Shown: in pieces, positions 2,380 to 34,041 of the stretch
Layout: each line of letters begins with the position of its first letter
Position numbering within the stretch: the first letter of the stretch is position 1
NCBI GenBank assembly: GCA_965226495.1
Contig: OZ245365.1
Coordinates: forward strand, 3,104,001 to 3,168,000
DNA length: 64,000 nucleotides
Direction: 5' to 3'
From: Candidatus Marinacidobacterales bacterium
GTDB taxonomy: Bacteria; Acidobacteriota; Vicinamibacteria; Marinacidobacterales; DATDRI01
The notes under the pieces: model-generated
The model's input: only the letters and a program-made list of their open reading frames with translations
Told to the model about the DNA's origin: nothing
Database searches by the model: none
Program-made: the position numbers and the translations under genes

Positions 2380-2420
2380 ACTTGCTTGTCCGCACGTGAA
2401 AAACTTCGCATACTGGTGAC

Positions 2421-4080: not shown

Positions 4081-4131
4081 GAGGCGATGCGTGTGGGAAG
4101 TCCGGTACAGTCTTCCGAACCGCATCGCCTC
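4081..4131. repeat. Stem-loop with a perfect 11-bp outer stem
   Basis: gaggcgatgcg...cgcatcgcctc, with inner ggaag/cttcc pairing. Confidence 0.6.
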
Positions 4132-4379: not shown

Positions 4380-4715
4380 CTATTCGACTCGGTCGCCATC
4401 AACAAAACGCTGCTCTTCTTCAATCTCCCCGTAATCGTTCCAGAAACGCCACAAGCCGTCTTTCTTGCCCTCTTTGTAGTGCCCCCCCGACGCGAGCTGA
4501 CCATTCTCGTGATAGTCTTTCCAAAGTTCCGTTTCTACGCCATGCTCGTAGAGACCCTCCGACGCCAACTGACCGTTGCGATGATGCGCCTGAAACAGCC
4601 CGTGGCGAATCCATCTGTCACCCTCAGGCGATAAATATCGACTGTATCGGAGATGCAATTCCCCAGTGTCGTAGGGAATCTCCGCTACTTCCAAAACTTT
4701 CTTCTGATCCTTCAT
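4380..4715 (-). CDS. Putative immunity protein, MORN-variant (YwqK-like) repeats
   Basis: Repeats HRNGQLASEGLYEHG / HENGQLASGGHYKEGKKDGLWRFW. It starts 18 nt after the Rhs toxin stop on the same strand. Confidence 0.8.
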   Translation of the reverse strand: MKDQKKVLEVAEIPYDTGELHLRYSRYLSPEGDRWIRHGLFQAHHRNGQLASEGLYEHGVETELWKDYHENGQLASGGHYKEGKKDGLWRFWNDYGEIEEEQRFVDGDRVE

Positions 4716-4733
4716 CTGCTATCTCAAGCCTTA

Positions 4734-7700
4734 CTATTTCTTCGGCAAGAAATCACTAGGCTTAAACAGATCTGTTCGTACCGGAAGTCTGGTTTTTGGA
4801 TCATACCGCGTAATTGCAATGGTATCAGGCAAAGCCCCCTCTCGAGCTTCGAAAGCCTTGATGAAGCGGATAATCTCTTGCCGATCTTTTGTGATGTTCC
4901 GGCCAAGCGGTTTGTCATCTATGATGAGACGCCTCCCAAAACTCACCGCGTCCGGTTGAACGGTTTGGGTGCCCTTGCTTGCTTTGGGTTCGCCTGACTT
5001 CAGATCCACCCGCTTGGGAACTCGGATGGGGTTACCCTCGGTGTCCCTGAGTCTCTGATTAACGACATCGAACTCCTTGGACGCACGGCGTTCTGCCGCT
5101 AGCTGGGCATGTACCGTTGTACCTCTTCGTGCAGACTCCGTGTTGCCGCTGTTCTTGGCCCCTTGAGACTGGGTGGCCGCTTTCGGCTGCGTGTTACCAT
5201 TTCTCCCCTCAGCCCGTACGTGTGGTTGAGACTCAGTGTCGCCAGCGTTGCTGGCTGCACTGGAGAGCAGTATTCCAGCAGGCAGTGAGGAACCGGGGCC
5301 TGTAATAGTGACTGAAACGCTGGGGACGCCACCAAGTCGAAGCGCCGCAGCTCCACCTGCGTTGACTACGGTAGCGGGTGCTGGAGTGGCGTTAAAGTTG
5401 ATCTTCGGGAGATTCTGTATGGCCTTGTACGCAAAGAATAACTGGCCGCCTAGCTCACCGGCTCCTGTCGCTGCGCCAAAAACATCACCACGCTCCAAGG
5501 CCTCATCAATATTCCGGATCGGCGCAAGCGCCACTTCCTTCGCAAACTCGCCCGGGTTTTCAAGCGCGAAGGCAGCAGTATTCAGCGCCTGCTCAACTGC
5601 CAATGCCTCCGGCCGAAAAATTGGTAAGCCGCCGGATGCCTTGAAAGCTAAGGCTCCTGTCAAGTTGAACGAGGCCTTAAAGGTTAGGACGAAGGGAGAA
5701 GCAAGTACCTTTCCAAACCCTACAACTGCTCCCCCAAAGGCAATTGCTTGCTGCCTGAGTAACTCTAATTGTGCGGACTCCTCCTGGGAGGATCGTTCGC
5801 ACGATAGGCAGATAGGTAATCGACCGCTTGGATCAACGAACCGGAATGGACTCTGCATTACATAGCTGTAGCGATGCAGGGTCGGTGGACGGTTCACATC
5901 CCCAAGCAAGTTATCCTGGGTCAGGAACCTGCCAATGTCCGGATCATAAAACCTCGCTCTAGCGTAGATAAGACCAGTCTCGTCATCCTTCTCAAGACCA
6001 GTAAAAGTGAACTTATTCGTTGAAGATCCGATGCGCTCACGCTCGTTGCCCCACGCGTCATAGAAGATCGACTCGCGCGCACTCCCAGACCCATCAGTCA
6101 AACTGACAGTCGAACCTAGGATGTCGAGGTGGAAGAAGCTCCGCCCTTCATTCCGGTTGTCCAAGCTTACGAGCTGGTCCAGGCCATAGTCGTACTTGGA
6201 GACCGTGATGCCGTCTTCGTCGGCCTCCGTGATGACGCTGAGCTGGTCGTAGGTGTAATGCCTCCGACCGTCCGCACCGATCTTGAGGATTCGGCGCCCA
6301 TCGAAGTCGTAGCCGTAACGGCCGAGAATGCTCGCTCCTTGCTGCACTTCCCCAAGCTGGTCGCGGATGCTGTACAGGAACCGCGTCTCGACTCCAGCCT
6401 TGGTTTTCGATAGCGTGTTACCGTTTGCATCGTATTCATAGAGGACGTTTTGGGTAGTATCGAGATTATCGGTGATGGTCTCGAGGCGGTTGATGGCGCC
6501 GTAATCGTAGGTGAGGTCCTTGAGAGTCGCGGTTGTGACGGGATCGGTGTCCGTCTCTGTTTTCCGATTACCGACTGGGTCATAGGTGTATGTGACCAGT
6601 CGTCCGTTGCGGAAAGTAGTATCGACAGGATAGTTAACCGTTTCGAGACGGTTGACGGGGTCATACGTGTAGGTCGTGGTCTCGTTGCGGCCGGCGTTGG
6701 TTTCGATCTGGGAGAGTCGGTTCCCGTTGGGTGTGTACTCGTAGGTGTACGCCGAGACGGTGCCACCGGGGCCCTCGTGGTCTATCGAGGTCAGCCGGTC
6801 GGCGGCGTCGTAGTCGAAGGTGGAGACCGTGGCATTCGGGTTGGTAACGGTTTCCTTGAGACCATCGGGGAAGTACGTGTAGACGGTCTGCCCGCCTTCC
6901 GTGGTCAACGTCTCGAGGCGGTTCAAAACGTCGTAAGTATAGACGGTTTCCTTGTTGTCGGGGTCTCTCAGGAGGGTGCGGTTACCCTGGTCGTCGTAAT
7001 CGTAAGTCAGCGTCTTGCCGAAAGTGTCGGTCTCGGTCTCTAGGCGGTCTAAATCGTCGTAGGTCTTGTTATGGATGAAGACCGTAGGCGGGTCGGTGCC
7101 CGAGCTGCGGAGCTCGTCAACTCGAATGAGGTTGTCGTTCGGATCGTACCCAAAATCGATCCGATGCGTTCTCGTGAACAACTCAAAATCCTCCGGAGTT
7201 AAGCTGTAGATCTTCGCCTCCATCCGGTTGAGCTCATCGTATTCGAAATCAATCACTTGCCCCTTGGGATCGGTGAGCTTCGTTTCGTTCCCGTTCGGGT
7301 CGTAGTCGTGGTCGGTGATGAGGTTGAATCCGCTGGGATCCTGAATCATCCGCTCCAGCCGGTTGAGATTGTCGTATCTGAATTCAACGCCGTTGTCCTC
7401 AGCGTCGACCTGGCGGATGCGGTTTCGGTTCTCGTCATAGTCGTACCGGAAGACCCCGGTGTCGGCCATACGGACTTCCATGAGCTCGTTGAGCTCCCCA
7501 TAGTCAAATTCTGTCCTCTGGCCTTCCGGCTCAATCTGCGCCTTACGGTTGCCTTCGCCGTCGTATTCGAACTCGGTGATATTGTTCTCCCCGTCTTCCA
7601 CGAAGCGCAGCCGGTTCAGCTCGTCGTAGGTGTTCTTGATGTCGAAGGGAGAGCCGGTGACGCGGCCGTCCTTCTCCGTGAAGAGGTTACCGACCCTGTC

Positions 7701-10700
7701 GTACGTGAAGCTCGTCGCGGTCTCGACTAGCGAACCCAGGCCGTCCGTCCGGTCAATCAGACGATTGGCTCCGTCGTAGCCGAACTGGGTCTGGTTGCCG
7801 TTGGCGTCGGTGCTGAGAGTACGGTTGTTGTTGCCGTCGTATTCATGCTGCTCGAGCGTGATACCCGCCCGAGTGACCGAGACTAGCCTTCCCAGAGCAT
7901 CAAGCTGGGTCGTATTCACGATCCCTCGCTTGTCGGTTTCAATGACCTGACGATCCGCGTCCTCGTAAACGGTGTTGAGCTCCCGATCCAAGGCATCCGT
8001 CACCTTGGTGAGTCGATTGAGGCCATCGTATTCAAACTTGGTGACGAACTTTCGCTTATCCGTCTCTTCCCGCTTGTTCACACCGTCGTAGACGAAAACC
8101 TGCTCGTTCCCATCCGGGTCCTCGATCCGCGTGACTCTCTCCTGGCCGTCCATCTCGAAGGTAGTCACAAAGCCACGGGCATCCCGCTCGAGTCTCTTTA
8201 CGTTGACGTCATCGTAGGTAATAACGGTCGTCGAGGGCACCCCGGTGAGGCTCGGCACCACCTCGCTCCCGGTGAGGCGGCCCAGGTTGTCGTAGGAGAA
8301 GTTCATCACCACGTCCCGGCGGTCTTTCTCGAACGTCTTGTTCCCTTCCCCGTCGTAGTCGAACTCCGTCACCAAACTGAGGGGATGCTCGATCCGCTTC
8401 AAGCGATTGAGGCCGTCGTAGACGAAATCCGTGACCCGGCCTTCCGCATCCCGGGTTTGTCTCAGGTTCCCGGTTCCGTCGTAAAAGTTTGTAGTGATGA
8501 GGTCTTCCGTTCCCGTCTCCCGAGTGACCTGGTGCACACGGTCGAATCCATCCATCCCCGTCGTGGTCTGGAATCCGCGCGGATCGGTCGCGGTTACCCT
8601 GTGAGCCGGGTCCTCGTACTCGAAGACGCTCACGTTGCTGAAATCATCTATGGCGGAGCCGACCGTACGTAGCGTCGGTCGATTGAGGAAGTCGTACTCC
8701 ATCTCCGTCTTGAGTCCACGCGTCAGATCCTCTTCGAGCGTCTGGTTGCCGCTTTCGTCATAGTCGAACTGGACTTGGTTGCCCTCGGGATCGGTAAGGA
8801 GCTTTAATCGATTCAGGTCATCGTACTCAAATACCCCCACTCTCTCGTTCGCATCGGACTCCGTCAGCTTATTCCCCACCCGGTCGTAGGTGAACGTCTC
8901 CTCATGCTCTGTGGAAAGACGCCTGGTTCTCAACCGGTAGAGCTCGTCATAGATGAACTCCGTCTCGTGACCATGCACGTCGGTCTCGAACCGCTTGTTC
9001 CCGACGTCGTCATAGGCGAACTCGGATACCACCTGAGGCGGACTGAAAGGACCTTCCACCTCGACCGTCTCCAGGCGATTGAGGTCATCGTAGGTGTTGA
9101 TGGTCCTGACCCCGCGGCGGTCTGTCATGCCAGTGAGATTGCCGTTCCCGTCGTAGAACATCTCGGTGACGAAGCCCAATGCATCTTCAGTACGTTCGAC
9201 ACGGTTCAGATCATCCAGGAAGAACTCGGTCGTGAGGTTGAGCCCATTGGTCTCGGTGCGAACTTGGCCACCGGGGTGGTAGGTCCGCTTAATAACCTCC
9301 TCGGCCGAAGACCCCTTGCCGTCCGTCCTTCGCATCGTCTCCACCCGGTCCAGCTCATCGAAATCCTGGGTCATGCTGCGACCGAAGGTGTCGGAGCTCG
9401 ATCGGAGGCGGCTTCGCTCGTCGTAGACGTTGGTGGTCACGTTGCTCAGCGGATCCGTGACCGTCTCCGGATTCCCAAAAGGATCGTAGACAAACTCAGT
9501 GACCATCCCGTCGCGAGGACCTTGCTGCAACTCGAGGTCGCCGGTATCGGGGACGTACTCGAACGTCGTGACGTTGAGCTCGGCGTCGGTGACCGTGAGC
9601 AAGTTGCCATTCGCAGGGTCAATCTCGAAAAGGGTTTCTCGGCCTTCGGCATCCACCTTGCGGGTCATCTTGTTGAAGATGGGGTCGTAGTTGAACTCGG
9701 TGATCACCTCCCCGAGCTCGGCGGTCTCGATAATCTCCTTGATGAGATTAGCATTGGTGTCGTACTCGAAGCGGGTGACGCGGCCGTTGGCATCGGTCTC
9801 CTTGAGCTTGGTGATGTCGTCGACGGCCCATTCCATCTTGGTAATAATGTCGCCCGGCTCATTAATCTCGAGCGGTGAACCGTTGCCGTTCAAGGTGTAT
9901 GTCGTCACGTTGCCGCGGGCGTCGGTGCCTCTGCTAATGAACTCCTGGTCGGTGACGACTCGGGTCCGGTCATAGACGAAGGACGTGGTGACGCCCTCTG
10001 GCTCGCGGACCTCTTTGACCCACTCGAACTTGTCTTGGACGAACAGCCCCTCCCCGCTCTCACCCGGAAAGACATCGTCATCCTCGAAATGGATGTAGAG
10101 AGTCCTGTTGCCGTTGGGATCGGTGGCCGCCGTCAGATTGTGGCGGTCCCGAACGTTTCCGATCGAGTACTCGTACTCCTCGACCCGCTCGTCTCGGGTG
10201 ACCTTGATGAGGTTGGCGAAGCTGTCGTATTCGTAAGTGACCTCGAGACCCAGGGGACCGGTGATCCGCCTCACTCGTGGCACACCGCGTACGTTTTCGT
10301 AGTCGAAGGTGAGCACGCGGCCCTCGCTGCCATCGGCAAACACCTCGCGAGCTTCCTCGAGGATGCGCTCGGAGTCATAGCTGAGCTGAATGCGGTTGCC
10401 ATTCGGGTCCTCGATAAAATCCAGAGTCGGCTTACCATCGAAGAGCGGATCGCCCTCGAAGAGCTCGATGTCCACGTAGTGGAAGCGGACACGGCCCTTG
10501 GTGAAGAAGTCGAAACTGCCGTCAGGATTTCGGCGGAGCTCGGTGTGGTAGCCCTTCTGCGGAATGAACTCATCGCCCACTTGGGTAAAGCGCTGACCGG
10601 AGCCGTCCCCTCCTCGGATGGTCCAAAAGCAATCCGTGATGACTAGGGTTGAAAAATAGTTGAGATTCCAACCGGCACCAAGGACGCCTTCGTCGGAGAC

Positions 10701-13700
10701 TCCAGAGCTCGAGTACGTGCGGACCACTTCGAGAGCGGGACCGCGCCCGGGGATGCGTACGTCGGTGGAAGAAGTCACAAGGTGACCGTCCAACAAGCCC
10801 ACGCCCTTCACGAAAGTCTGTCCGACAGGAAGCACATTGTCCGAGGATACTCGCACCGACAGTTTTCCCTGGACTTCCTCCGCTAATTCGGGCTCCGCGA
10901 CGGCCACAGCGGCGATTCGGAACTTGTGCGTGTCTGGCTTCGGTTCGAATACTCCGCTTTGATCGAAGCGGAACTCGAACCGCTCAAAGGGCACGGTTGC
11001 AGGGTCTTGTATTCCTCGGAACAGGACGTGCTCCACTTCGTCTATGGTGACCGTGATAAGAACGTCGGCCTCCTCGGTGAGGTGGTAGACGAGAAGCCCA
11101 GGCAGGAAGCAAGTCTGTTGGTTGATAGGGTCGACCTGGAACTCGAGATTACGTTGATGGACGACGTTGTACAGGAGCTTGCCGAAGGGATCTCGAAACG
11201 GCGTGGACCGCCTTTGGCCGGCGAGCCTCTCCACGACAAGCTCGGCCCGGTAGTCCTTGTTCAAGATGTCAGCTTCGAATCCGGTGTCGAGAACCGCCAG
11301 GCCTGCACCTTCCAAGCTGCTACCGTCGAGTCTGGCAACCTCTGTTTCGGCTTCCGTCTGTTTGTCGGTCTCGAAGAGGAGAATCTCAGCCTTTGTCCAG
11401 TCGATCTCGGTCGGTTGGATGAAGTACGCGAAGGCGGTGGGTCCGGACGTCGCGAATCGACCTTCTTGGACGGTTAGCAGGGGGGAAGGAGCTGGGATCG
11501 CACTATCAATGAACAGATTGAAGAGATTGAGGCGCTCTCTTTCCGAGCTCAGCTCGAACGAGGTGTCGGGGAGGAGCGCGATCTCGGCCTGATAGACCTT
11601 GCTGGGATCGAAGAAGATGTTGGGGCTGATCTCGACCGGCCCATCGGGAAGCTCGCTGAACACGTAGAGCGAGCCGTCCTGGAAGACACGGAGTTGCCGT
11701 CCTGGATTGAAAGAGCGGAGCATCGTGTCGACTTCGGTCGGAAGGATCTCGAAGGTGAGTTTGGGCTCGTCCTCCACGTGACCGTTGGCGTCGACGAATA
11801 TGGGATCGGGCTCTTGCGCCCGGAGCCTGACGGTGGCGCCCCAGACCGAGAATCCCGGCTCCTGAGGTGGGGAGGCACGGGTGAAGTCCACGAAACTAAC
11901 TTCTTCCGTGTCGGGGTCGACGACGGGGCGCGTGAGCTTCGCCGCTAGGACCCGGCTGCTGATCCTCCGCTCACCCGGCTCCGGCCCAAGAAAGAGCTTG
12001 GATTGGTAGGTCCCGTCCGGGCTGTCCGTGATCGCGCCCGGCTCAAAGTTCCCGGACCCATCGAGTAGCACGGGCTCGACGGTCGCTTCGGTGACCACGC
12101 GCTCCTTGAACCGACCCGTTCCGCGGAGCTCGGCCTTGCCTTGGGCGTTGGTGATGACCTCCCATTGTTCTTGGAAAGCTCGAAGTGTGTAAAAAATGTT
12201 GCTGGGAAGCTGAGAGCCGGCCTCGCCCATCCAAAGATGCTCGCCATTCGGCAGGTTCACACCGCGTTTCGCGAAGAAAACCTCAAGCCGTTCCCCAACC
12301 GGAAACGAAACGAGACCCGATCCGAAGTCTTTAGTATCCCGCACGAACTCCACTCGGGACTGGCCGAGCTTCGTGTCTTCGAGAAGCGCATTCGCGAAGT
12401 ATCGTGTAGCGTCGACATCGCCCACTTTGACGAACGTGAAAATGCCACCCGCTGCGGTCAGACCGCTCACCGCATCTGCGAATCCGTCGCCGAGCTGGAA
12501 CTGCGCGTTGGTGAACTCCGCGGGAAGCGGCCCGGCGCTGAAGCGCTCCGCGTCCCCCACGGTATAGGTGACTTCGATGTTCGATATCGGATTCCCAAAC
12601 TGATCCACCGCTTCTGCCCACAGTGGGACCGCAGAAACGGTGAGCGGTGGGCGCGGGGCGTCGCTCGTACCGGAGACCAGTCGCAGCCGCGCGTGACGGC
12701 CGTCGGCATCTTCTTCGGCATCGGGGAAAGCGAAAGCAACGAGGGGCTCTTCGAGCGCTACATCCCCGCTTTCGGCCGTCACCGAGTACAAACCGACCTG
12801 GGTCATAAAGGTGTCCGACGGCTTGCCCAGGACGAACCGTGGTCTCAGGCGCGTACTCGGGCCGAGGACGAACCGTGCTCGTGCGAAGCCTCCCTGCGTG
12901 GGAACGGTAATGAGTTGGCCCTGTTCGGTCGCATCGAGAGACGCCAGGACACTCCCCGGCTCGAGTGCCCGAAACGTGATGGACGCACCGTCCGCAACCG
13001 GGTTGCCATCGATGTCGGTGACAAAGACCTCGAGCGGGAACTCGAGCTCTTGTGCCACAATCCCTTCCTGAAAGTCCCCTTCGGAGACCTTGACGATGGC
13101 GGCGACCTTCTCGCTCGGGTCTTCCTGAGACTCTTCCGGATCGGTGAGCGCGTCGGCGGTGTCGGGCGGGAAGTCTTCCGGAGGCACCGCGGAGGAACCT
13201 CCTGCGATGACGCCCGAGAGAAGATAAGCACTTTCGCCGCTCACCGGATCCCGGGCCACGAAACCGCCTCCCGTCCACGCCAGCAGCGTGACATCGGTGG
13301 CGGGCGCGGTGACCAGCCGGCCGAGATGAACTTGGGTGCGAATGGCGTCTTCGAGAGCCGGTTCGAGCGTGATCTCGGCCAGCGCGTCGTCGACGTTGCT
13401 GGCGTCGATGTCTTTGACCTCGATGCCGGTGGCGTTCGCCAGACGAATGAGCTTCAAGGTTGAGATGGAAGTGACACCGAGATCGTCTTCGAGAACGCGA
13501 CTTTCGAGATCGGAGCCGACGAGCCCGGACAAGAGGAAGAAGTCGCGCGTCGCGTCATCGTCCTCCTCGGCCGCCACGGGAGCGCTCGGTCGCAGATCGG
13601 CGTCGACATCCACGCCCTTCCACTCGAAGGTGAGCGCAATCAGACTCTCATCGGTCGCGTAGTCGACCTCGATGTGGTTTTTCACCATGACATGGCTAGG

Positions 13701-27500: not shown

Positions 27501-30500
27501 CCTTCCTCACGACCGACTTCCCGGAGGCTCGCTGCCATGACGTTACCCCCGACGTCCTGGAGCGACCATTCGTGGAGGTTCGGATCGAGAATGTGGCCTA
27601 CCAAGTCGACTGCCAGACCTTCTTTGCCCGTATAGAGGTTCGTGTACACGGCCTCCACATCCGGTGGAGTCGCGTCAATCACCACCCGGAACTCGGCCCC
27701 GCGGAGCTCGACCGTGTACATGCCATCCGGAAGGCGCGCTCCAGAGTCATCGGTTCCGTCAAAGGCGAAGGAGGCCGGGCCGATGCTCGCCTCGTCTCGC
27801 AAGATTGTGCGGACCAACACGCCCTGTTCGTTTCTCACCAAGAACTCGAGATTCACCGGCTCTAGCACCGTATAGTTGAAGACGGTTTCGTCCTGAATGC
27901 CGTCCCCGTTGGGCGAGATGTACTCCGGCGACCGGGTGAGGTCTGCGATCGGAAGCGTCTCCTCCCAGAAGATGCGCTCCAATCGTACCGTCTCGTTACC
28001 GGCGAGATCGCGCACGGTGAGCCGCACCAAGTAGTCGCCGGGCGCCGGGGGCAGCCAGGTCGTCAGGACGTCATCGGCTACTGGGAAAATCGACGGGGGT
28101 TGGATCGGAGTGAATGCGTCGGGAGCCGACAACGGCGCAAACTCGAGGGTGTAGTTGGCGAGATTCAGATCGGCTGCGCTACCCCTGACCCGTACTCCGA
28201 AACCCGACGGAAGCCGAGCTAAACGGAGACTGGCCGCACCGTTCAAGAGCGAGGAGATCGACCAGATGTCGCGCTCGTTGCACTCCGCCGGCGAGGTGCC
28301 TTCAAACGCCTCGAATGTGATCTGCGTGCTTCGAGGCGACCATCTCAGGTTAGAACCGGAGGCCAAGATCGGCCGAGCCTCTCTCCCGTCCAGCCGCCTC
28401 ACGAAGGACCGGCCATCAAAGGTCCAGTTGTATTCAGAGTCCCTCCGATCGCCGATGTCGGGGTTTCTCCGCAGCTCGCCCGTCACTAGATTGAACTCGA
28501 AGAAGACATCTCCGGTCCCGGCTTCGTCTGCATCCCAATCGACATAAATCCTTTGGGAATCACCCGAAAAGGAAAGAAAGTCGAGTTCGACATCAACACC
28601 GAAAGTGCCTGTTAGAAGCACGCGGTCGGTCTCGGGAAGCTCGCGATTGTTCGAGCCGTCCGCGTCCATAATGCGTACAAAGGTCTCGCCCTCGATGTTG
28701 TAGACAATGCGCCGGCCGTCGGGTGACCACTCGGCGAAAAAGACGGCTTCTTCGTCCGTCAACTGGACAACGAACTCTCCCTCAGGCGTGTAGAGAGACA
28801 GACCGTCGAAGCCTGCCCGGAGGATGCGTTGCCCGTCGGGAGACCACCTCGCATTGGCGGATCCCGTGCCGAGGGGAGTCAGCTCTCCGGTGGAGAGATC
28901 CACGACTTGAGCGGTTGATCCAACCGAGATCAGGGCTCGCCGTCCGGCGGGGGACACGGGTTGAACGAACCCGTCGGCTCGCCGCCCTTCGAACGACGCG
29001 AATCGAAACTCCGATCCAGTCTTCACCGCTTCAATCTCGGTACCGTCGGCGCTCACCCGATAGAGCCCCAGCGGAAATTCCGGAACCTGAGAATCTTCGG
29101 CGGCGACTATGAAATAAGCGGCGCTGTCGTCGGGAAGCCAGGCGGGTTCCGATAGCCTGTTCGAACCAGGCAATGGACAGGTCAGGTTCACAAAGGAAGC
29201 AAACGGTGTGCCGAGAGCCTCGACGATGCTGGAACGGTTGGTGTCGAGGACGACTCGTCGGCGGAGGATCTCGCCGCCCGCCGAGGACAAAACAAAGAAG
29301 TAGATCCCGTCTCTGGCGATGCGTCCCTCTGCATCCCGGCCGTCCCAGATGACGCTGTCACTCGCCGAGGCGTCGTCGCCCAAGCCTTGAACTACCGCAG
29401 ACTGGCTGTCCACCACCTCGACCGAGAACGGGCCTTGCCCCCCGACATCAACGACATCAATGACATCAAAGAAGAAGGCTGCTTCGTCCTGCACGCCGTC
29501 GCCATTGGGCGAGAAGTAGATGGGTGTGACAAAAACATCCGCGTCCTGGAGAGCTAGAGGAAAACGGATCACATTGTTGCCTTCACTCTGCTCCCGAACC
29601 AGGTCGGCCACGTCGAGCACCAGAAGAAGCTCATGCTCGCCCTCCACACCGGCCGTATCCCAATCGACAGAGAAGCTGAAGCTCTCGCCGGGGGCAAGCC
29701 CGGACACCGACTGAGACCCGAGAACCGGCCCCGCTTGCGCGTCGTCGAGCCGGATCTCCACCGTGAAGGCGTCTGCATCCTGCTCGCCGACATTGGTAAG
29801 CGATGCTTCGACCGCGATCACCTCTCCCGACCGTGCGAATGGAGGATCGAGTCGGATCTGGGCGCTGCTCGAGAAGAGATCGGGAAGCCCGATGACCTTG
29901 ATCGACTTGAAGGCGGCGTTGTCCCCCTCATCGAACTCACCGATGACCCCACCGACATCCGCCACGGCAAAGAGAAGCTGCTGGCCTCGAATCGTGACAT
30001 CGTCCCAATCGAAATCGACCGCGACTTCTTCGTCGGCGGCCAGAATGGGCACTTCCACCTGACCGATGGGAAGCCCGCCGTCTTCCGGATCTCCGGCGAA
30101 GAAACCAAACGTGAACGCGGAGGCATTCACCGTCCCCACGTTTCGGATGGTAGCCGTGAGGCTTGCTGGCTGCCCTTCCAGTAAGGGGTCTGGGGCGATC
30201 GCGATGTCGGTACTTTGGACGGTCAGGTTCGGCTGGTCGGATGTGACGACGTCGACCGTGGCCAGGGCTTCGTTGTTCGTCTCGTCGAGCTCAGCAAGGA
30301 CGTCAAAGGGATCGGCGCGTACGAGAAGCGGGATCGTTCCCACTCGATTGGCGGCCCAGGAAAGCTGGGCTCGCCTCGTTTCTCCGGCCGCGAGGGAGAG
30401 ACTGACGTTCGACGCCAGAACCAGATCCTCTGGGTTCTCATCCTCGAAGAAGAGGGCCACGGTCACGGCGGCCAGCGATCGGGTCCCGCGATTGGCCGCA

Positions 30501-33478
30501 TCGACTTCGACCAGGAGCGTGTCGCCCGCCGTGATCGAGTCCTGAGAAAGCGTCAGCGAGGAGGCGATGAGCTCAACCTCGATGGTGTCCTCCAGGTCGA
30601 CGAGCGTCACCGAGGCGACGTTGTTCGATTCATCTCGTTCCGCGACGGCCTCTTCGCCATCGACGAGCACGAAGAAAGTCTTTGTCCCCGAGCCGGTGAT
30701 GGAAAACCCGAAAGAGACTCCCGTTTCGGTATCACCCGAGAAACTCACTCGCGACTCATCGAGCTTCAACCCTCCGGAGGTGGGATTCCCCTGGAAGAGC
30801 TCGACCAGGACGTTGTCCACGGGCGTCGAGCCGGTGTTTCTTATGCGCGCGGAAAGCGTCACGTCCTGCGGCAGCCCTTCGAGTCTCGGAGGCACCAATG
30901 TCAGGTCGGCGGCGGTGAGCTCGAAGTCAGGTTCCACCGGCGGGGCGACGCGGACTTCGACCCGGCGCGACAAGCGGTTGTCCGTTTCGACCCGCTCCCG
31001 CACGTCGTCGAGTGCATCCACCACCACGAAGAGATCATGAACCCCTAAGGCTCCAGTCGTATCCCAACGTCCCTCGACGTCGGCCAAGCCACCCGGCGCG
31101 ATGTCCTCGGTCACCACGACCTCGTCGAGCACCAGACCGAGCTCGGGAGCTCCGTCATGGAACTTCACGATGAAGGCAGACGTCGCGACCTCGCTCCCCG
31201 CATTGGCGACGCGGGCGGTCAGCGTGACCTCGCTACCCTCAATGGGTCGATCGGGAGAAACGAGAAGCGATTCGGCCACCAGGTTGGGAAGGGGTGGAAG
31301 GACATCGACCACGCGACTCGCGACGTTGTCCGTTTTGGAGACCTCGACCAAGGCGCTGGCCAGATCCGCCACGGCGAATAGAGTATGCAGGCCATCGAGG
31401 CCGGAAGTGTCCCACGAGAACTGGGCCGTCGTAGACGCGCCTGCCAGAAGTCCTGAGACGTCGACCGGGTCGCCAATCGCTTGTCCGCCTGCTTCGGGAT
31501 CGCCGTCGAAGAGATGGATCGAGAAGGATCCGGCGGCGACACGAGAGCGGTTCCGGACAGTGACCTGCACCGTCACCAGCTCACCCACCTCGGGCGGATC
31601 CGGAGTCAGCGTGATATCGGATCCATCCACCGCAAGATTGGGGACACTTGCAGGGACAAGGGCCGCTAGGACCGACGCGGTTTGAAAGCTGCTTCCAGTC
31701 CAGCTTCCGTTGCTTTCTTGTGTCTGGCGCAAGTAGTCGAGCGCCAGATCGATGACCGGGATCGGGCCACCGCCATCTAACAGCGTCTCGACGGCTCGGG
31801 CAGTGGCGTACGGTGTCGAAGGTCCATCACCGAAACCGCCGTCGGGCTGCTGACGGCCGACCAGCCAAGAAAGCGTGAGCTGCACCGCGGCGATGATATC
31901 GAGATCGACGAACTCTCCCTTCACCGACTGGAGAGCCTCGATGACCTGGCAGGTCGTCACGAGATCGCCGTCTTGTCCCGCGATCGCACTCCAACTCCCC
32001 TCCGGCCGTTGTGACGATAGAAGAAACTCGGCGGCGATCAGTCGCTCGGGGGCTGGAGCGGCCGCGTTCGTCAATCTGGTCAGGGCGAGAAGCGCGAGAG
32101 CGGTGTCCAAGGGCTCACTCCGGTACGCGTTGGCGATTCCCCATCCGCCGTCCAGATTTTGTTGACTGAGGAGAAGCACTGGGTCATGAGCCACCCCGGC
32201 TAGAATCGTGCGGGACAAGAAATCCACGGTTATCGGTTGCCGCCCCGTGAGCCAACCTAGGCCGGCGGCGGACTCCTCGCCCCGCACACCTAAGAGGTCG
32301 AGCGCCCTGAGCACGACTGAAGTGTCTCGAATGTCGGTCAGCGGGTGATCCTCCCACCGACCGTCGGTCTCCTGTTCACCAAGAAGCCAATCGAGTGCGA
32401 GAAGCGTGTCGGGAGTGATCGAGGGCTCGGGCGGCGTTACATTGAGCAGGTCGGTGTCGACATAGCCCCGCCCTAAGGTCAGGCTGAAGAACGTCGTTAC
32501 GAAGGCGGAGCGGATGGCTTCGACTTGAGCGAGGTCTTCGGCGGACGGAATAATGTCCTCCTGAGTCAGAAAAACGAAGGCCAGGTTGAAGTTTTTCGGT
32601 GCTTGGGCGACATCGGGTGAACGCGCTCCTTCCGCCTCGATGACCTGCCCGATCTGAATCGTCTCGGTGCTCGCCTCGATACGGGCCCCGAGGTCGGGAA
32701 ACTGGGTCGGGTCGACTTCTGAATTGATAAGAAGCGTAAAGGGCGGCACCTCCTCGGGGTGAGCGAGACCCATCAAGTAGAGGTCGAGCGAGCTGTAGCG
32801 GGTTTGGACCTCGACCGAGGTGAACGTCCCGTCGCCGTTGTCCTGCCAGCGATTCCCATAAAGGAACGAGGCGTCACTATCCAGCAAGAAGCTCCAATGG
32901 TTGCCGTCGCGCCCCAGAAGGTCGGTTCGGACGGTCCCTGAGACGTCCTTGAAGCGCGGTCGGGCAAGCCAGCGATGTCCGATCTCATGAGCGACGATCC
33001 CTAGCGTCGAGCGGAATCGCGGGTCGGCGGGAGCGACGCTGAACGGCCCCTGCCGGTAGTGACTGATGGATCCCATATCGACGACGCCCTGCAGGCGGGA
33101 GGGGCTTCCAAACAGATCACCGGCATCGAAAATGGGAACGCCGATACCTTGGACGTCATTCCGGACTCCGGTATAGATGGCGTCGGCATCGCCTCGAGGA
33201 AAGTCGAAATTCGTAACAATAATAATGAAGTCGTAAAAATCACCGTGGGTGCGGATGAATTCGGAGGCGACGCGGGCGCGTGGACCAGGATTTGGCGTTC
33301 CGTCGTTGTTGATGGCGTCGTAAGGCGTGCCGTCGTGCTCGATGACGGCCAAGTGCCCTTCATCGCTATCGAAGCGGGGTCCGTCGGCAGCGAAGCAGAC
33401 GCCTGCCGTCGGCCCGAGTAGTTGGCCGAGCACCAGGCCGAGACAGCTGAACCTGCCGGATACAGACAATCGGTTCAC
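15521..33478 (-). CDS. 5985-aa secreted multidomain protein: HExxH metallopeptidase-like domain, QW/prenyltransferase-type repeats, CARDB, FlgD-Ig, TolB/PD40-like propellers, Ig/FN3 repeats, lectin-like C-terminus
   Basis: N-terminal signal; VAHEIGHRW; QETDGRW/QNLDGGWG/QRPEGSW/QQPDGGFG/QESNGSW; CARDB-type VD..V.E.DETNN; FSPNGDGVQD..WDG; WSPDG; seven ~100-aa repeats with Y.W.ARA.DG-like motifs. Confidence 0.9.
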   Translation of the reverse strand: MNRLSVSGRFSCLGLVLGQLLGPTAGVCFAADGPRFDSDEGHLAVIEHDGTPYDAINNDGTPNPGPRARVASEFIRTHGDFYDFIIIVTNFDFPRGDADAIYTGVRNDVQGIGVPIFDAGDLFGSPSRLQGVVDMGSISHYRQGPFSVAPADPRFRSTLGIVAHEIGHRWLARPRFKDVSGTVRTDLLGRDGNHWSFLLDSDASFLYGNRWQDNGDGTFTSVEVQTRYSSLDLYLMGLAHPEEVPPFTLLINSEVDPTQFPDLGARIEASTETIQIGQVIEAEGARSPDVAQAPKNFNLAFVFLTQEDIIPSAEDLAQVEAIRSAFVTTFFSLTLGRGYVDTDLLNVTPPEPSITPDTLLALDWLLGEQETDGRWEDHPLTDIRDTSVVLRALDLLGVRGEESAAGLGWLTGRQPITVDFLSRTILAGVAHDPVLLLSQQNLDGGWGIANAYRSEPLDTALALLALTRLTNAAAPAPERLIAAEFLLSSQRPEGSWSAIAGQDGDLVTTCQVIEALQSVKGEFVDLDIIAAVQLTLSWLVGRQQPDGGFGDGPSTPYATARAVETLLDGGGPIPVIDLALDYLRQTQESNGSWTGSSFQTASVLAALVPASVPNLAVDGSDITLTPDPPEVGELVTVQVTVRNRSRVAAGSFSIHLFDGDPEAGGQAIGDPVDVSGLLAGASTTAQFSWDTSGLDGLHTLFAVADLASALVEVSKTDNVASRVVDVLPPLPNLVAESLLVSPDRPIEGSEVTLTARVANAGSEVATSAFIVKFHDGAPELGLVLDEVVVTEDIAPGGLADVEGRWDTTGALGVHDLFVVVDALDDVRERVETDNRLSRRVEVRVAPPVEPDFELTAADLTLVPPRLEGLPQDVTLSARIRNTGSTPVDNVLVELFQGNPTSGGLKLDESRVSFSGDTETGVSFGFSITGSGTKTFFVLVDGEEAVAERDESNNVASVTLVDLEDTIEVELIASSLTLSQDSITAGDTLLVEVDAANRGTRSLAAVTVALFFEDENPEDLVLASNVSLSLAAGETRRAQLSWAANRVGTIPLLVRADPFDVLAELDETNNEALATVDVVTSDQPNLTVQSTDIAIAPDPLLEGQPASLTATIRNVGTVNASAFTFGFFAGDPEDGGLPIGQVEVPILAADEEVAVDFDWDDVTIRGQQLLFAVADVGGVIGEFDEGDNAAFKSIKVIGLPDLFSSSAQIRLDPPFARSGEVIAVEASLTNVGEQDADAFTVEIRLDDAQAGPVLGSQSVSGLAPGESFSFSVDWDTAGVEGEHELLLVLDVADLVREQSEGNNVIRFPLALQDADVFVTPIYFSPNGDGVQDEAAFFFDVIDVVDVGGQGPFSVEVVDSQSAVVQGLGDDASASDSVIWDGRDAEGRIARDGIYFFVLSSAGGEILRRRVVLDTNRSSIVEALGTPFASFVNLTCPLPGSNRLSEPAWLPDDSAAYFIVAAEDSQVPEFPLGLYRVSADGTEIEAVKTGSEFRFASFEGRRADGFVQPVSPAGRRALISVGSTAQVVDLSTGELTPLGTGSANARWSPDGQRILRAGFDGLSLYTPEGEFVVQLTDEEAVFFAEWSPDGRRIVYNIEGETFVRIMDADGSNNRELPETDRVLLTGTFGVDVELDFLSFSGDSQRIYVDWDADEAGTGDVFFEFNLVTGELRRNPDIGDRRDSEYNWTFDGRSFVRRLDGREARPILASGSNLRWSPRSTQITFEAFEGTSPAECNERDIWSISSLLNGAASLRLARLPSGFGVRVRGSAADLNLANYTLEFAPLSAPDAFTPIQPPSIFPVADDVLTTWLPPAPGDYLVRLTVRDLAGNETVRLERIFWEETLPIADLTRSPEYISPNGDGIQDETVFNYTVLEPVNLEFLVRNEQGVLVRTILRDEASIGPASFAFDGTDDSGARLPDGMYTVELRGAEFRVVIDATPPDVEAVYTNLYTGKEGLAVDLVGHILDPNLHEWSLQDVGGNVMAASLREVGREEGRDVIIIEALAPQQGLELEASDFAGNVTFVPLSGPDREVRVIQQEAEVVGPLKPGPPDTPRQLVIPPGDHVFWRAEASFDAGSILFRFRRVGDPSFTERATEAGDFSLDANELELGQPYEGHFVADGIQSEDVSFVVGPDAIFVFATLQDPTTLVVSAFSTVEEELVKATLIVRVNGIGGPFKVYEPFPGDVTELVPVDLACGGTASASVVATGASGKEYLSTTTTAYPDAALASDKLEACVDIRALDSLIQQQVSCDSALPVDALIDVRALSFPSTATNVSLVAQSDTLPSQEVARQSLPGLQGAFSIGVSWNLTGLAEGSYTVEPVVNDTFRGSSLEFYLDNSRPEAIFESPPEGGNACVRVIDDEEFIEIEVVGRDREVEFLSVERLVSADPDNWQRVERVEFSAPVSEARQTVLVPIPIAFEGELTLRLVVESPRLQEEVAEKPVRNSPSRLNNGSILGCAVRRVLVSRTESLGPLASDPASPSSVLPPAFSPNADAVLDELRIQTEVFEPVAVDARVVTSETQVLVRQLLTDANVAPGTLELLWDGTDDATEVVADGRYTVIVDALSGCGALTTRTLDVDVDTSPPTVRIDSPADGQPVTTLVEIRGTAADERFVQYVLEFGEGASPAEFFPIGEPSEKPVEDDALGLWEAGVLVGEHTVRLTAADRAGNVASTEVTVDVQTPDLIERFSVAPVLFSPDADGVKDTAEFRFTLKADSRVTLEIRKTDSTVLTTLIVDELRPTGDHVFEWDGQTPGGLAEDGDYVAVLIAVDAQFPTLTEEATLPVVVDVTDPVVTLTSSSPGAFVSVPHNLTGTILEEHFEGYRVELGPEPGELAVIEDAVLPPAIVLARFDEASDGLHRLRIKASDRAGNTTEVSFTFTVDSTSPQVSINAPEAGAFLKKEDSISVSSTVAETNLDTFLLEFGLGAPPEVFVPLAGGSELEQRDFLTDWEVSEFPDGLYTLRLSAIDLAGNRSETSRVVTLDGTPPVLAIDVPAEGTFVSEIQPVLGTATDDHLEIWTLAVAPGGEAQAFQFTELSRATIPVESAQLHEGFTLQDGTYTLRLLASDIAGNKSTLLRTIEVDTDPPAAPINLTATVENQDDVRLDWQAPPDPDIEGYLVFRKEELLTAEPISATELRDLDLPDGFFVYTVRAVDRAGLQSDPSNPAEAVIDITPPHVVLQQPENESSVRGLVDIVGTAFSADDFEEYRLTVTPAETPLDATLLASSSVPVNFATLLQWNTILLDGSFTVRLEAEDEVGNLASDEVLVTIDNQTPGTPTLLSVEALAPPDDVEVVWEALAEPVAGYLVFRNGSIANAPGSVAGDLGAFLIDGTSYVDPDMPDGEFCYRVAAMDEAGNLGPDSNEVCIVLDNRPPSALIFDPQDGARFDQPRQVRAITEDEDVATVLFQYQLQINDDPPTDQWMNIETDSEAPFEVLWDITSLDFGSYFLRAVATDFGSRSDDAPATIRVTLGDATPPAAPENLVTRVTGDDVALTWDPVSDPNLEAYQLYRDDTLVAAIDASLTTADDLDLGDGLYGYEVTALDADGNESDRSDSETARVYAPLPILPFPIFIDTVDVAGENAEPDSLVRLNSVGSPDVIAETTADGEGAFSFGGLSLPLGENLVEVRATDPEGNESRASESFQLIHHRPPDPPAALSGEAQETTATLNWTPNIETDISGYLIDRDGEPVTPTGSIRPDGDIPTTLTATADSNASIAGRIIDGSPFSLWLSSFQNPFVSAAVEIGLVPERHLNKIAVNWTQSPRDYRILAEISGQMLVVADARANTQLESTHSFPLAFKTPRIRIEITALQSEAGRAVIGEVELTGLEPISDTAFTDTLPRPGTYNYTVSALDIFGGASIPSGPIELVVAGTAPPSVPQNLMVIPVPEGEALDLTWDASTGPVAGYVVLRALTSGGPYQEIARVPETAFHDEGLQNGTEYFYVVRSFNDFGNESLDPDEASGIPQDVAPPAPPLLLHPATPERPATVFSGLADIVGAAEPGSLVTVKHDGEDVGSVVAELETTEQRTIAMDAINGFTLSPTEPFLAIDLFDKLELHHLGSGEVQTLPGGNGLSAPAFSPDGESLALTQFNTESSQTELRVIDLATGAVEVVDAGGDAFGPIWISGTEIAVRVGNEIRVVDRTTGTLSTLYTSPAQFVLPSVFRLSPDASLLAFAESVRTLRYVPVTGGDAVTISTALDFVIDYAWTSDNNVVYFDDESLFLFNTTSETGAPFFDLGRTPRPALALSPEGRVSFLTSEGDDYSLFLRDVDGAIHDVGLVESRGFLSTSRWTNDLRLVVSWSATPDVLFIHTPPGRFELLGVSLNVGENAFTGTARDAFGNLSDESAPALVTFDRSRLPDLTPEGDILVVPGVPTTGQSASLSVNVRNDGATEVESALVQATGRDLAENVYLIGNATTPAIEPGESVAVHIGWDTTDRLGSQEVTIAVDPLQAIEELDEQNNAVATEVTVVGTAGVELTIATGLPSYGVGQDVQVTVQAINGGPDQNVMLETLIEDAGGQPVAGVDVRSTFLSYADTESYSVFWNTGTTLAGDYRARVNALEGDRLLATVATDFSLIRSFFLETGVTTGRPSYREGEAVDLLGTVTNTVSNVAFENVTARFRVLDGASAVLFEESQTLPQLAREVPVSLSTMWTDSTLAPGVYTIGLDVFEGAELLGAATSTVEIVAVDGALLTGSLELDESAVPLGAESLARWAVDNSSPVDLLGGVIRFELLDPATGDRTLADELTADIAAGDELSGEIALSTVGLPLGAHEVLLSAGLPGSLEPLASDSLTLFAIPSPPSLNAPGEGESAPQPLELSVNNASNPNGEALTYTFEIYLDPALQVRVAAASGIPEGTNTTMWPVPITLAENQTYHWRARAEDRFTMSDFMSPASFFIDSLNEAPGAPGLSAPAEGSEVSELQPNLEITNAVDPEDDILTYTFEIYTDVDLTELVTSIDSVTSGGSGTGTTFVQVPQPLDEDQTYFWRSRANDGELDGEWMTRASFRINTGNQAPTAPTPLSPIGTSPTVSPDLVIGPSNDPEGDPLTYTFEIDTTDRFDSPAVRRAEGVFPSGPSGPSGPDVDPDLDKVRWPVPEALAENVVYFWRARATDGLAVGDWSDIVSFRVDEANQGPSSPTPQSPTDGVIVETVTPPLAAMNSTDPEDDTLTYDFEVYSDEALTERVAVVDRIREGEDQTRWAVSPQLENGRSYFWRCRANDDETASDWSLAEPFRVNTMNETPTAPSIDSPPDGGRVADPQPILTVVNATDPNGDPLTYRFELYRDELLADLVVASPEIVEEPDKTSWQIPVPLDENVVYYWRARANDGVFDGPFTPTASFRVSAINENPASPTSVSPADGAEVNIAAPVLEVENAGDPDGDVLRYIFQIFSDVDRNSLVIESPEIDEGDPRTTWQVTEDLNENGVFYWHAIATDGLLQSDPSDLFRFRINAVRDEPTAPRPIAPANESEVASTAVRLEVENATSPDLLALHYHFQIATDPAFQDLIAQDENVENVTEGDDTTGWDVPVELTPDVTYYWRARAIDELGLPGPWSDTFQFTVVLIGGVCPPEWREDFEGFLLGSTPADWWLRIDKDKDDDSSSDDSSSDDSSSDDDSSDADSSDDDSSDNGHRREGVLFAVDRGAESQVLQSRRPGEGALLFVGSGEALTWQNYAFGGDLTLAHLGNLGGTDKKKKSCFGAGVAFYADPEAQTEYRFEITGCNNPRARLVKFKKGKASTLTSTSVERPDMPDMPDMDGQFFEFEIETVHQSGETSIRAHLRLVDAERTVLNEWWLDAVDSHHPFVGGTIGAFVDHSRAAWDNFHVGELSGHDSGISGDENGDGVCDVEETCPDVSQFCLDDGFHKKTGLSKWIVARHGHVGHSGPGACGAKHSYWVKKNDGVLVVQTPFLEAGMYEFQLLLQRGTNGSNQPNLRVVFENGQEFDFADPVNGQGPFEWTVPVRVVLDAGVRSFGIVSIGNPKVHVEGFRLQQVCE
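16661..16705. repeat. In-frame 15-bp tandem repeat x3 encoding a Ser/Asp tract
   Basis: gtc(a/g)tcggaactgct x3, inside DDDSSSDDSSSDDSSSDDDSSDADSSDDDSS. Confidence 0.85.
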
Positions 33479-33494
33479 CCAATTCTGGGTGCGT

Positions 33495-33905
33495 CTAGTC
33501 GAATGATTCTGGAGGCGGAGTCTGGGGCTGGGGTGAATCAGAGACTCTAGAGTACTCTCTCACTTTTACTTCGCCTGAGGCTTTGAATCGGACCACAATC
33601 AAGCTTTCGTAGTCCTCTCCGGTCCCCCCGCGCGTAAGTACCAACGTGGAACGCGTTATCTTTTCTACGACCGCGTCTTCTTCCTCCACGCGATCCCCCT
33701 TGGACCACACCCGCGACTTGCCTTCCGGATCGAGGATGGTGATCTCAGCCGGTAACTCCCGAACGCCCAGAACACGGATACGCTCGAGAAATCGGGTGTC
33801 CTTTTTCTCTTCGCTTGCAGGGCTTGCAGGGCTTGGAGGAACGGTCGGGACGGACGCGCTTAGCAGCAGGGAGAGTAAAACCCCCAGGCTAGGAAGGAAT
33901 TGCAA
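33495..33905 (-). CDS. Small exported or membrane-anchored protein resembling the PilP / GspC-HR domain
   Basis: Hydrophobic N-terminus and Pro-rich linker, then IRVLGV..ITILDPEGKSRVWSKGDRV..AVVEKITRSTLVL. It is the first gene of the operon, 16 nt before the giant gene. Confidence 0.55.
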   Translation of the reverse strand: MQFLPSLGVLLSLLLSASVPTVPPSPASPASEEKKDTRFLERIRVLGVRELPAEITILDPEGKSRVWSKGDRVEEEDAVVEKITRSTLVLTRGGTGEDYESLIVVRFKASGEVKVREYSRVSDSPQPQTPPPESFD

Positions 33906-34011: not shown

Positions 34012-34041
34012 AAAATACCAGGGTTCGTACTTTATCGTCAA
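34012..34041 (-). promoter_or_regulatory. Possible sigma70-type promoter for the giant operon
   Basis: Minus strand TTGACG-N18-TATTTT with a TGn extension. Confidence 0.3.

Follow-up and report, generated by a model that had tools for sequence, protein, structure and literature searches.

A window of 64,000 nucleotides (nt), lying at 3.10-3.17 Mb of the 6.34-Mb single-contig genome of a Candidatus Marinacidobacterales bacterium, contains on its minus strand a cluster of four co-directional open reading frames (ORFs) that encode proteins of 136, 5985, 3596 and 111 amino acids (P0001 to P0004). We found that the third gene encodes an Rhs toxin with an inactive-transglutaminase (iTG) module, that the second encodes a giant secreted protein whose relatives neighbor iTG toxins across phyla, and that the first encodes a small protein with the predicted fold of the GspC HR and PilP domains. 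These results suggest, at a probability that we put at roughly 60%, that the cluster is a Sec-dependent polymorphic-toxin system of the iTG class that does not depend on a type VI secretion system (T6SS), with the giant as its stalk and the small protein as its adaptor to a secretin. Within this reading, we infer the secretin route and the docking of the toxin on the giant.

The ORF list of the window placed gene 1 at 33495..33905 (TTG start), followed after a 16-nt gap by gene 2 at 15521..33478 (GTG start), which overlaps gene 3 at 4734..15524 (GTG start) by 4 nt; gene 4 at 4380..4715 (ATG start) begins after a gap of 18 nt. This is exactly the arrangement claimed in the initial annotation. 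Since the 18-kb and 10.8-kb open frames carry Pfam matches with E values of 2e-70 (CARDB) and 2e-93 (RHS_repeat), chance frames can be excluded. The N-termini of P0002 and P0003, read by eye from the translations, each contain a stretch of basic residues, then a hydrophobic core and a site of the AxA type resembling a Sec signal, in keeping with the signal peptides proposed for both giants.

P0003 comprises, in order, a signal peptide followed by a helical stretch, a transglutaminase module without Cys, an immunoglobulin-like (Ig) domain, a DUF6531 plug, an Rhs shell with its core, and a toxin predicted to have the restriction-endonuclease fold. Pfam, an alignment of 56 sequences and an AF2 model delimited a module of ~600 residues (residues 150-760; 13245..15077) around the Cys-less transglutaminase core, which matched Transglut_core at residues 211-348 (E 7e-11), reads GNDAD and keeps His319 and Asp347. 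Big_1 matched at residues ~964-992, ahead of DUF6531, which plugs the Rhs shell at its N-terminal end and lies at residues 1575-1645 (10590..10802; Pfam E 1.4e-9). The Rhs/YD-repeat shell extends over residues ~1650-3234 (5823..10577), with matches to RHS_repeat in Pfam (E 2.4e-93) and to YD_repeat_2x (E 1.9e-60), and ends in the Rhs-associated core at residues 3155-3234 (NCBIfam TIGR03696, E 1.3e-19), a predicted autoproteolytic boundary before the toxin. A second ORF with Rhs repeats, a frame of 1663 amino acids, was detected elsewhere in the same genome (C1:~4993300-4993660; L006, L105).

The variable C-terminal cargo of P0003 (residues 3235-3596; 4737..5822) was assigned by motif and by language-model look-alikes. 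It consists of a Gly/Ala-rich hydrophobic stretch and then a predicted PD-(D/E)xK (restriction-endonuclease-fold) toxin of ~170 residues. The final 176 residues had Tox-REase-9 (0.93) and Tox-REase-7 (0.88) as language-model look-alikes, which we treat as a lead only, and the translated C-terminus contains a PD...IIDDK motif, presumably that of the PD-(D/E)xK nucleases. The last ~360 residues had no Pfam match at E<=1 and no sequence match in the PDB.

Eight full-length homologues of P0003, of 3536-3680 amino acids, were found in public data, and their N-terminal 1300 residues were 30-52% identical. Three of them end in Ntox15 (PF15604; P0006), PF14428 (P0007) and PT-HINT/Hint_2 (PF07591/PF13403; P0012), respectively, none of which is present in P0003 of the window. 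Because differing C-termini follow a shared N-terminus and shell, the P0003 family bears the signature of a polymorphic toxin. P0004, a MORN-repeat variant, matched MORN_2 of Pfam (E 1.7e-9), a repeat type that we take to be that of the YwqK-type antitoxins, and its gene occupies the immunity position behind the toxin gene. P0004 is therefore, from match and position, the predicted immunity candidate for the gene 3 toxin.

The absence of T6SS, Tc and autotransporter parts from the locus, reported in the initial annotation, was borne out: at Pfam E<=0.01, the four proteins contained no PAAR, VgrG, Hcp, SpvB/TcdB, autotransporter or two-partner secretion (TPS) domain, and no TcA-type partner or SpvB/TcdB mid domain appeared among the matches of P0002 and P0003. 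CdiA/CdiB features (TPS, FHA repeats, an Omp85-type CdiB) were found neither in the four proteins nor in the 24 flanking ORFs scanned. Independence of the T6SS extended to the whole genome (94.8% complete, judged by markers), which contained no match to TssC (PF05943), PAAR (PF05488) or VgrG (PF05954), and a PAAR- or VgrG-binding domain, named beforehand as refuting evidence, was not found. Genes 3 and 4 very likely constitute an iTG-class Rhs toxin-immunity pair that is independent of the T6SS.

We investigated the catalytic site of the iTG module in the 56 aligned homologues. The column of the nucleophile, which we take to be in register with the canonical GxC motif, contained Asp in 34 sequences, Ala in 18, Ser in 4 and Cys in none, and the GNDxD transglutaminase variant noted earlier is therefore real. 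N247 and D250 were invariant, and His319 and Asp347 were kept in 52 and 51 of the 56 sequences, respectively. The AF2 model of the module was of good quality (pLDDT 87.5, pTM 0.87). In a wide structure search, only residues ~45-295 of the model resembled known folds, those of transglutaminase-like cysteine proteases (Z 8-11), and the remaining ~300 residues matched no known fold; Foldseek returned nothing at E<=0.001 and merely animal transglutaminases with a root-mean-square deviation (rmsd) of >20 Å.

When 1.84 billion cluster representatives were searched with a profile, the iTG module was detected in 3904 at E<=1e-30 and in 7580 at E<=1e-10, typically in proteins of 1000-1400 amino acids. 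The module is a handle common to thousands of polymorphic toxins. With one genome taken per species, an alignment-seeded scan yielded 77 iTG loci; a single N-terminal protein used as the query gave no relative. These loci occurred in Acidobacteriota, Bacillota (Paenibacillus, Lachnospiraceae, Clostridia), Nitrospirae, Omnitrophota, Gamma- and Betaproteobacteria (Marinicella, Cellvibrio, Comamonas, Delftia, Pseudomonas) and others. RHS repeats were present in just 6 of the 76 loci scored (Acidobacteriota, Marinicella, Smithella, Omnitrophota).

The C-termini of iTG proteins were variable. In 10 of 11 related pairs, an identity of 70-100% fell to 0-30% over the last 100-300 alignment columns, the exception being L043/L046. 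We scanned 52 C-termini (the 54 listed minus those of L027 and L028, two loci from Acidobacteriota that are broken or have no Rhs); 10 carried a known toxin or pretoxin Pfam domain, one carried CBM9, and 41 carried none. The toxin and pretoxin domains were an EC869-like nuclease, PT-HINT with AHH, PT-HINT with Tse2 ADPRT, a deaminase, CdiA_C, NucA/NucB, Amidase_2 and, in three cases, PT-HINT alone. Small ORFs and orphan C-terminal fragments followed many of the iTG genes. On one contig from a metagenome-assembled genome of the Gallionellaceae (L063/L064), at least five iTG-module genes, encoding 723-997 amino acids each, were arranged in tandem downstream of a single partner gene.

All-versus-all clustering of the ORFs over the 77 loci produced two wide clusters, the iTG proteins (76 loci) and a partner family (51 loci), to which the giant P0002 belongs; the next cluster covered 5 loci. 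A partner with a toroid and MG domains was encoded on the same strand within three genes of the iTG gene in 54 of 76 loci. Where at least 4 kb of flanking sequence was available on both sides, the fraction was 31 of 35, across Bacillota, Pseudomonadota, Nitrospirae and Acidobacteriota. The exceptions in this well-flanked set were L046, L064, L084 and L090: the partner of L090 lies further downstream, L084 has an unclustered gene of 1532 amino acids upstream, and L064 overlaps L063 on the same contig, which starts with a partner gene. The partner was mostly upstream and sometimes downstream of the iTG gene, and in several Gammaproteobacteria it was split in two genes. The survey of synteny called for in the initial annotation thus showed giant and iTG toxin to be kept together, and the giant family is a near-obligate neighbor of iTG toxins across phyla. 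These results make it probable that the giant is a functional partner of the Rhs toxin.

From its N-terminus on, P0002 has a signal peptide, an HExxH domain, a QW-repeat alpha/alpha toroid, arrays of CARDB, FlgD_ig, Big and fn3 domains, and beta-propellers; after these come a core of MG2 type, repeats resembling fn3, an acidic linker of Ser and Asp and, last, a C-terminal domain that contains Cys. Pfam and the translation gave seven CARDB domains in addition to FlgD_ig, Big_13, fn3, propellers and the conserved C-terminal domain, which itself had no Pfam match at E<=1 and no PDB sequence match above chance level. The HExxH domain (residues ~35-350; 32429..33376), a putative zinc metallopeptidase recognized by the motif VAHEIGHRW in the translation, had no Pfam match at E<=1 and no PDB sequence match; it is kept in a paralogue from the same genome (MAHEVMHQW) and, at 52-66% identity, in giants of the order. 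P0002-like giants were found in six genomes of this order (G010, G014, G004, G008, G036, G038).

Two cores of P0002 are shared with partners from other phyla. The first, recognized by BLAST coverage and by motifs across 37 partner ORFs, is the toroid at about residues 345-600, for which SQHop_cyclase_C (E 7.6e-10) and Prenyltrans matched at residues ~381-640 (31559..32338), giving a TED- or squalene-cyclase-like domain without a thioester; TED_complement matched in the partners of L070 and L053. The second is a block of three MG2-type beta-sandwich domains at about residues 4460-4850 (18929..20101), defined by BLAST coverage (residues ~4472-4840) and alignment, and 18 of 21 aligned partners matched Pfam MG2 in this segment (best E 8e-12). 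The toroid and MG2 cores indicate that the partner is built from alpha-2-macroglobulin-type parts, to which VWA is added in Bacillota and CarboxypepD_reg arrays in Proteobacteria. The giant described initially as a CARDB/QW protein does contain the QW toroid and CARDB domains, and the label of a CARDB adhesin alone is less apt than that of an alpha-2-macroglobulin-like toroid and MG2 scaffold. A covalent thioester mechanism for the toroid was considered and rejected, because the motif C[GAS]EQ occurred in none of 63 partner ORFs; P0002 reads LGEQ.

The same genome contains a paralogous three-gene locus outside the window (C1:4435517-4448044; L104), which consists of a gene for a 143-residue T2SSC-like protein, a giant of 4031 amino acids and a 222-residue ORF. 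The paralogous giant (C1:4435517-4447612) aligned to residues 12-3462 of P0002, covering HExxH, toroid, CARDB, FlgD_ig and Big_13, and its own C-terminus consists of PT-HINT followed by a domain of ~150 residues with a D...EVK motif. The 222-residue ORF overlaps the end of this giant gene and may be its immunity gene. The paralogous locus is a complete polymorphic toxin with the giant as its carrier. Given the linkage of partner and toxin genes and this toxin-fused paralogue, we interpret the giant as a toxin-presenting scaffold. The last 2500 residues of P0002, and with them the MG2-type core, have no counterpart in the paralogous giant, the locus of which has no iTG gene. Since the MG2 core is missing from a paralogue that is fused to its toxin and has no iTG module beside it, we propose this core, from that one comparison, as a candidate docking site of the iTG module. 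A Ser/Thr kinase gene with PD40 repeats lies downstream of the paralogous locus.

Other arrangements of giant, shell and N-terminal module were found in related genomes. In G008 (C2:3303713-3323712; L114), a P0002-like giant of >4600 amino acids is followed by an ORF of 1286 amino acids that encodes an Rhs shell with a TEN_YD-shell match and no iTG module; the frames overlap by 224 nt, and either the two form a giant-Rhs fusion with a frameshift or the Rhs gene stands by itself. In G005 (C23; L025/L026), a protein of 3933 amino acids with 15 CarboxypepD_reg domains is followed by an Rhs protein of 4914 amino acids, the shell of which was 58% identical to that of P0003 and the N-terminus of which is cadherin-like/Big_9 in place of the transglutaminase. 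Judged by this pair, the shell together with the toxin part seems to be swapped among different kinds of N-terminal module. G010 and G014, of the same order, also have the small gene, the giant and the iTG gene in this arrangement.

We examined the small first gene by modeling and by structure and sequence searches. P0001 contains an N-terminal hydrophobic leader followed, at residues ~38-120, by a beta-sandwich of the GspC-HR/PilP type, and the core of its AF2 model had a pLDDT of >90. Among 48,161 chains searched, the model matched the HR domain of GspC (3oss_C) with a Z of 7.4 and an rmsd of 2.1 over 62 of 65 residues, PilP (3jc8_Pa) with a Z of 7.0 and the HR domain of PulC (6hcg_e) with a Z of 6.4. 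Eight of the top 10 rows were GspC/PulC/LspC, PilP or GspB, and the other two were a Dot/Icm component and a Tudor domain; Foldseek gave a probability of 0.99 for 3jc8_Pa, 7oio and 3oss_C. In phmmer and profile searches of the PDB, the first or nearly first ranks went to GspC 3oss_C (E 0.03/0.07), PilP 2ivw (E 0.36) and PilP 4av2_M (E 1.0), the language-model search returned HofP clusters (0.88), and a 70%-identical homologue is named "PulC" in one source. The PilP/GspC-like character of the first gene, read earlier from the letters, was thus reproduced by the AF2 model and the structure searches.

The profile of gene 1 matched the 143-residue paralogue (E 5e-4), which itself matched T2SSC of Pfam (E 3.5e-4, 20.9 bits against a cut-off of 27) and is encoded 4 nt upstream of the paralogous giant. 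Matches to the profile occurred in 7 of the 55 genomes of the order, in all seven cases directly upstream of a P0002-like giant. In the type II secretion system (T2SS) and in type IV pili (T4P), the HR/PilP domain binds the secretin at its N0 domain. Judged by its model, P0001 is a predicted secretin-N0 adaptor that accompanies the giants.

The genome contains four secretins, none of which is near the window. They lie at 0.19 Mb, in a T2SS-like cluster that also has pseudopilins and genes of the GspE/F type; at 3.53 Mb, as PilQ with PilM/N; at 3.60 Mb, as an orphan next to LolA; and at 5.27 Mb, in a Tad/Flp cluster. We can propose only tentatively, at less than even odds, that export uses a secretin by way of gene 1. 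In the mechanism that we envisage, the products of genes 1 to 3 would cross the inner membrane by Sec, and the immunity protein would stay behind. The small HR-like protein would couple the giant to one of the secretins of the genome, and the giant, as a string of small domains, would be threaded to the surface and form a long stalk. The iTG module might dock the Rhs toxin on the MG2/toroid part of the partner. When a competitor is touched, the cage of Rhs repeats would open or be taken up, and the nuclease would kill cells without the MORN immunity protein.

Several results weigh against this interpretation. The evidence consists of sequence and structure comparison, and the binding of toxin to giant and the exit from the cell rest on inference. 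The same pair of partner and toxin is common in monoderm Bacillota, which have no outer membrane and no need of a secretin. The gene 1 profile matched only two acidobacterial loci among the 8070 ORFs of the loci examined, and, since gene 1 was not found beside pairs outside the order, the secretin link cannot be general. P0001 is without the transmembrane and PDZ parts of GspC, and its gene is far from all four secretins. P0001 had no Pfam match at E<=0.01 and none at E<=1 to T2SSC or PilP, and its Z scores of 5-7.4 are moderate, as values below 8 can reflect common arrangements; the HR-fold assignment carries weight because the matched family was consistent and coverage of the HR domain was near-complete. 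The leader of P0001 contains no Cys, and therefore no PilP lipobox, and the gene adjoins the giant and aminotransferase/ilv genes, not a T2SS or T4P operon. The MG-like segment of P0002 itself had no Pfam match at E<=0.01, and the nuclease assignment of the toxin comes from look-alikes of a language model and a motif only. Within the order, errors in the assembly or decay have left the genes of G010 split into many frames, and G014 (C3; L021/L022 = L028) has the giant and the small gene with an iTG gene of ~1126 amino acids without Rhs. For the initial proposal of a stalk that presents the Rhs cage and leaves through a T2SS/T4P secretin, the partner linkage, the toxin-fused paralogue, the HR-fold gene and the presence of secretins therefore speak in favor of the stalk; for the exit route, the pairs in monoderms and the restriction of the GspC-like gene to this order speak against.

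We considered the possibility that the Rhs protein is a "default" toxin that is exported to the periplasm by Sec alone and set free through lysis, in vesicles or by the general T2SS, with the giant as a co-regulated adhesin that does not touch it. The T2SS-like cluster at 0.19 Mb would be available for release, and Zhang et al. 2012 (PMC3482391) file the class under default Sec/T2SS export with no signature neighbor. Prediction of a complex between the iTG module (residues 30-611 of the aligned set) and the MG2-type core scored 0.00 in two runs without controls, and counts neither for nor against the docking. This explanation does not account for the adjacency of the partner across phyla, in both gene orders, in the well-flanked loci, or for toxins fused directly to giants of the same family. 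The iTG module, moreover, comprises ~600 residues without an enzymatic nucleophile, for which a binding role is the simplest reading. We therefore regard the Sec-only explanation as rather improbable.

The alpha-2-macroglobulin-type cores raise a second possibility, that the partner is a guard of the toxin, which it would cage, mature or shield, or of the envelope of the producer, by holding the papain-fold iTG domain as alpha-2-macroglobulins trap proteases. A TED-like toroid and MG2 domains make up the conserved cores, the iTG module has the papain/transglutaminase fold, and the N-terminal HExxH domain of the giant could process the toxin. The thioester, however, occurs in none of the 63 partner ORFs, the toroid is N-terminal to the MG domains, unlike in alpha-2-macroglobulin, and >4000 further residues of the giant are Ig, fn3 and propeller domains, as is typical of extended surface fibers. 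Paralogues also carry toxins at their own tips. A guard function is accordingly improbable in our judgment. A toxin aimed at eukaryotes (grazers or a host), in the manner of Tc toxins or teneurin-like YD proteins, would fit the Rhs/YD shells shared with TcB-TcC and teneurins (the TEN_YD-shell match of the G008 Rhs protein) and the wealth of adhesin-type domains in the giant, but is very improbable given the small immunity-type gene tightly coupled to the toxin gene, the family members with classic interbacterial toxin domains, downstream small ORFs and orphan cassettes, and the absence of TcA, SpvB or TcdB domains from the Pfam scan.

We thus favor the reading of a Sec-dependent, T6SS-independent toxin system with the giant as stalk. 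A broader proposal would hold that iTG toxins and toroid/MG2 partners form an unrecognized cross-phylum two-partner delivery system, with thousands of families among monoderms and diderms, in which an alpha-2-macroglobulin-like scaffold holds an inactivated papain-fold handle and the acidobacterial giant of 4000-6000 residues, with its GspC-like adaptor, borrows a secretin; in this full form we consider the proposal doubtful.

The surroundings of the cluster were also inspected. A sigma-70-like promoter match lies on the minus strand ~107 nt before the start of gene 1 (34012..34041); it is a consensus match alone, one site being found where 0.3 was expected. The upstream flank is of housekeeping type, with two class I/II aminotransferase genes, ilvC, ilvN, ilvB and ilvD, and an ORF of 496 amino acids between ilvB and ilvD (40196-41686, minus strand) had no Pfam match. 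Further upstream are two neighboring ABC-transporter genes (47957-52746, plus strand), the first with an N-terminal C39 peptidase domain as in bacteriocin-type exporters, for which no cargo gene was identified, and Ser/Thr protein kinase genes (53052-57651, minus strand), two side by side, one of them encoding 1219 amino acids with a long TPR array. The downstream flank is gene-poor. Orphan Rhs or toxin cassettes were sought at 700-4400, and this region contained only an XRE-type helix-turn-helix gene (804-1097, plus strand), a two-gene ParE-type toxin-antitoxin pair (1145-1369 and 1366-1677, plus strand; ParE_toxin E 4e-12) and a direct segmental duplication (2458-2796/3076-3387) made up of 100% identical blocks of 92, 139 and 43 nt that lie ~610 nt apart. 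Two ORFs in the duplicated stretch (2421-2765 and 3227-3688) had no Pfam match.

Most of what is understood of polymorphic toxins, Rhs toxins among them, comes from carriers of the T6SS, the type V secretion system (contact-dependent inhibition, CDI), the type VII secretion system and the Tc toxins; for the many toxins with a signal peptide, the question is how they reach a target cell. The 77 related loci tie the iTG class to a dedicated conserved partner and, in one order, also to a gene resembling a secretin adaptor; these components are concrete, testable parts for a delivery route independent of the T6SS. The same pair is present in Paenibacillus, Cellvibrio, Comamonas and Delftia, which are culturable, and the question is thus accessible to ordinary genetics. 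Toxin-fused and toxin-separate giants within one genome constitute a natural experiment on toxin attachment. If the two-partner reading is true, contact-dependent antagonism would have a new route and T2SS/T4P secretins a substrate of a new kind.

The architecture of P0003 has a precedent. The study of Zhang et al. 2012 (PMC3482391) catalogues in silico proteins with a signal peptide, an inactive transglutaminase, bacterial Ig, RHS and a variable toxin, the transglutaminase domain being without catalytic residues, occasionally beside bacterial Ig and with RHS repeats after it; it proposes that this domain anchors the toxin at the cell surface, and its Table 1 lists the class under T2SS/Sec-dependent export with "-" as the signature neighbor gene. 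In P0003, too, the catalytic loss follows a signal peptide, and Ig, RHS and a variable toxin come after it. The Rhs protein is therefore a very large new member of the class catalogued in 2012, of which the locus is the largest format known, and its architecture is not a new class. The iTG family found here differs from the 2012 description in that the module comprises ~600 residues, most carriers are without RHS and a conserved partner is present. The accessible part of the 2012 paper makes no mention of macroglobulin, prenyltransferase, CARDB, toroid, GspC, PulC, PilP or secretin. For the partner gene, the GspC-HR-like gene and the fused and unfused giants, we found no published description in a search that left subscription journals and supplements largely outside and in which only the 2012 catalogue proved relevant, so that an earlier account is possible.

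P0003 has a DUF6531 plug, a shell of Rhs repeats, an Rhs-associated core, a variable toxin and an adjacent predicted immunity gene in common with T6SS Rhs effectors, but it has no PAAR, prePAAR or VgrG-binding part, it carries a Sec signal peptide, and its genome has no T6SS matches. WapA of Bacillus subtilis is a Sec-dependent, wall-associated Rhs/YD toxin of a monoderm that mediates contact-dependent inhibition without a T6SS. P0003 resembles it as an Rhs toxin with a signal peptide and no T6SS, and differs in its diderm acidobacterial producer, its iTG N-terminus and its dedicated giant partner. The closest parallel in the probable way of working is with CdiA/CdiB, in which the polymorphic toxin sits at the C-terminus of a surface filament of great length and comes with pretoxin modules of the PT type and a cognate immunity, and CdiA_C and EC869-like toxin domains do occur on iTG proteins; the filament here, by contrast, is made of Ig, MG and toroid domains without TPS, FHA or CdiB, and the toxin may be a separate polypeptide. 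As in Tc toxins, an Rhs cage with its enclosed toxin is on one polypeptide and a huge carrier is on another, encoded side by side, whereas TcA, SpvB and TcdB-mid are absent here and signal peptides and a predicted immunity gene are present. P0001 shares the fold of its residues ~38-110 with GspC HR and PilP; it differs from them as a stand-alone protein of 136 amino acids without PDZ, coiled coil or lipobox that is encoded with a putative giant substrate. The giant, finally, is predicted to combine MG2-type domains and a TED-like alpha/alpha toroid in one secreted protein as bacterial alpha-2-macroglobulins do, but it has no CGEQ thioester, a different domain order and no recognized bait region, and it is tied to a toxin gene.

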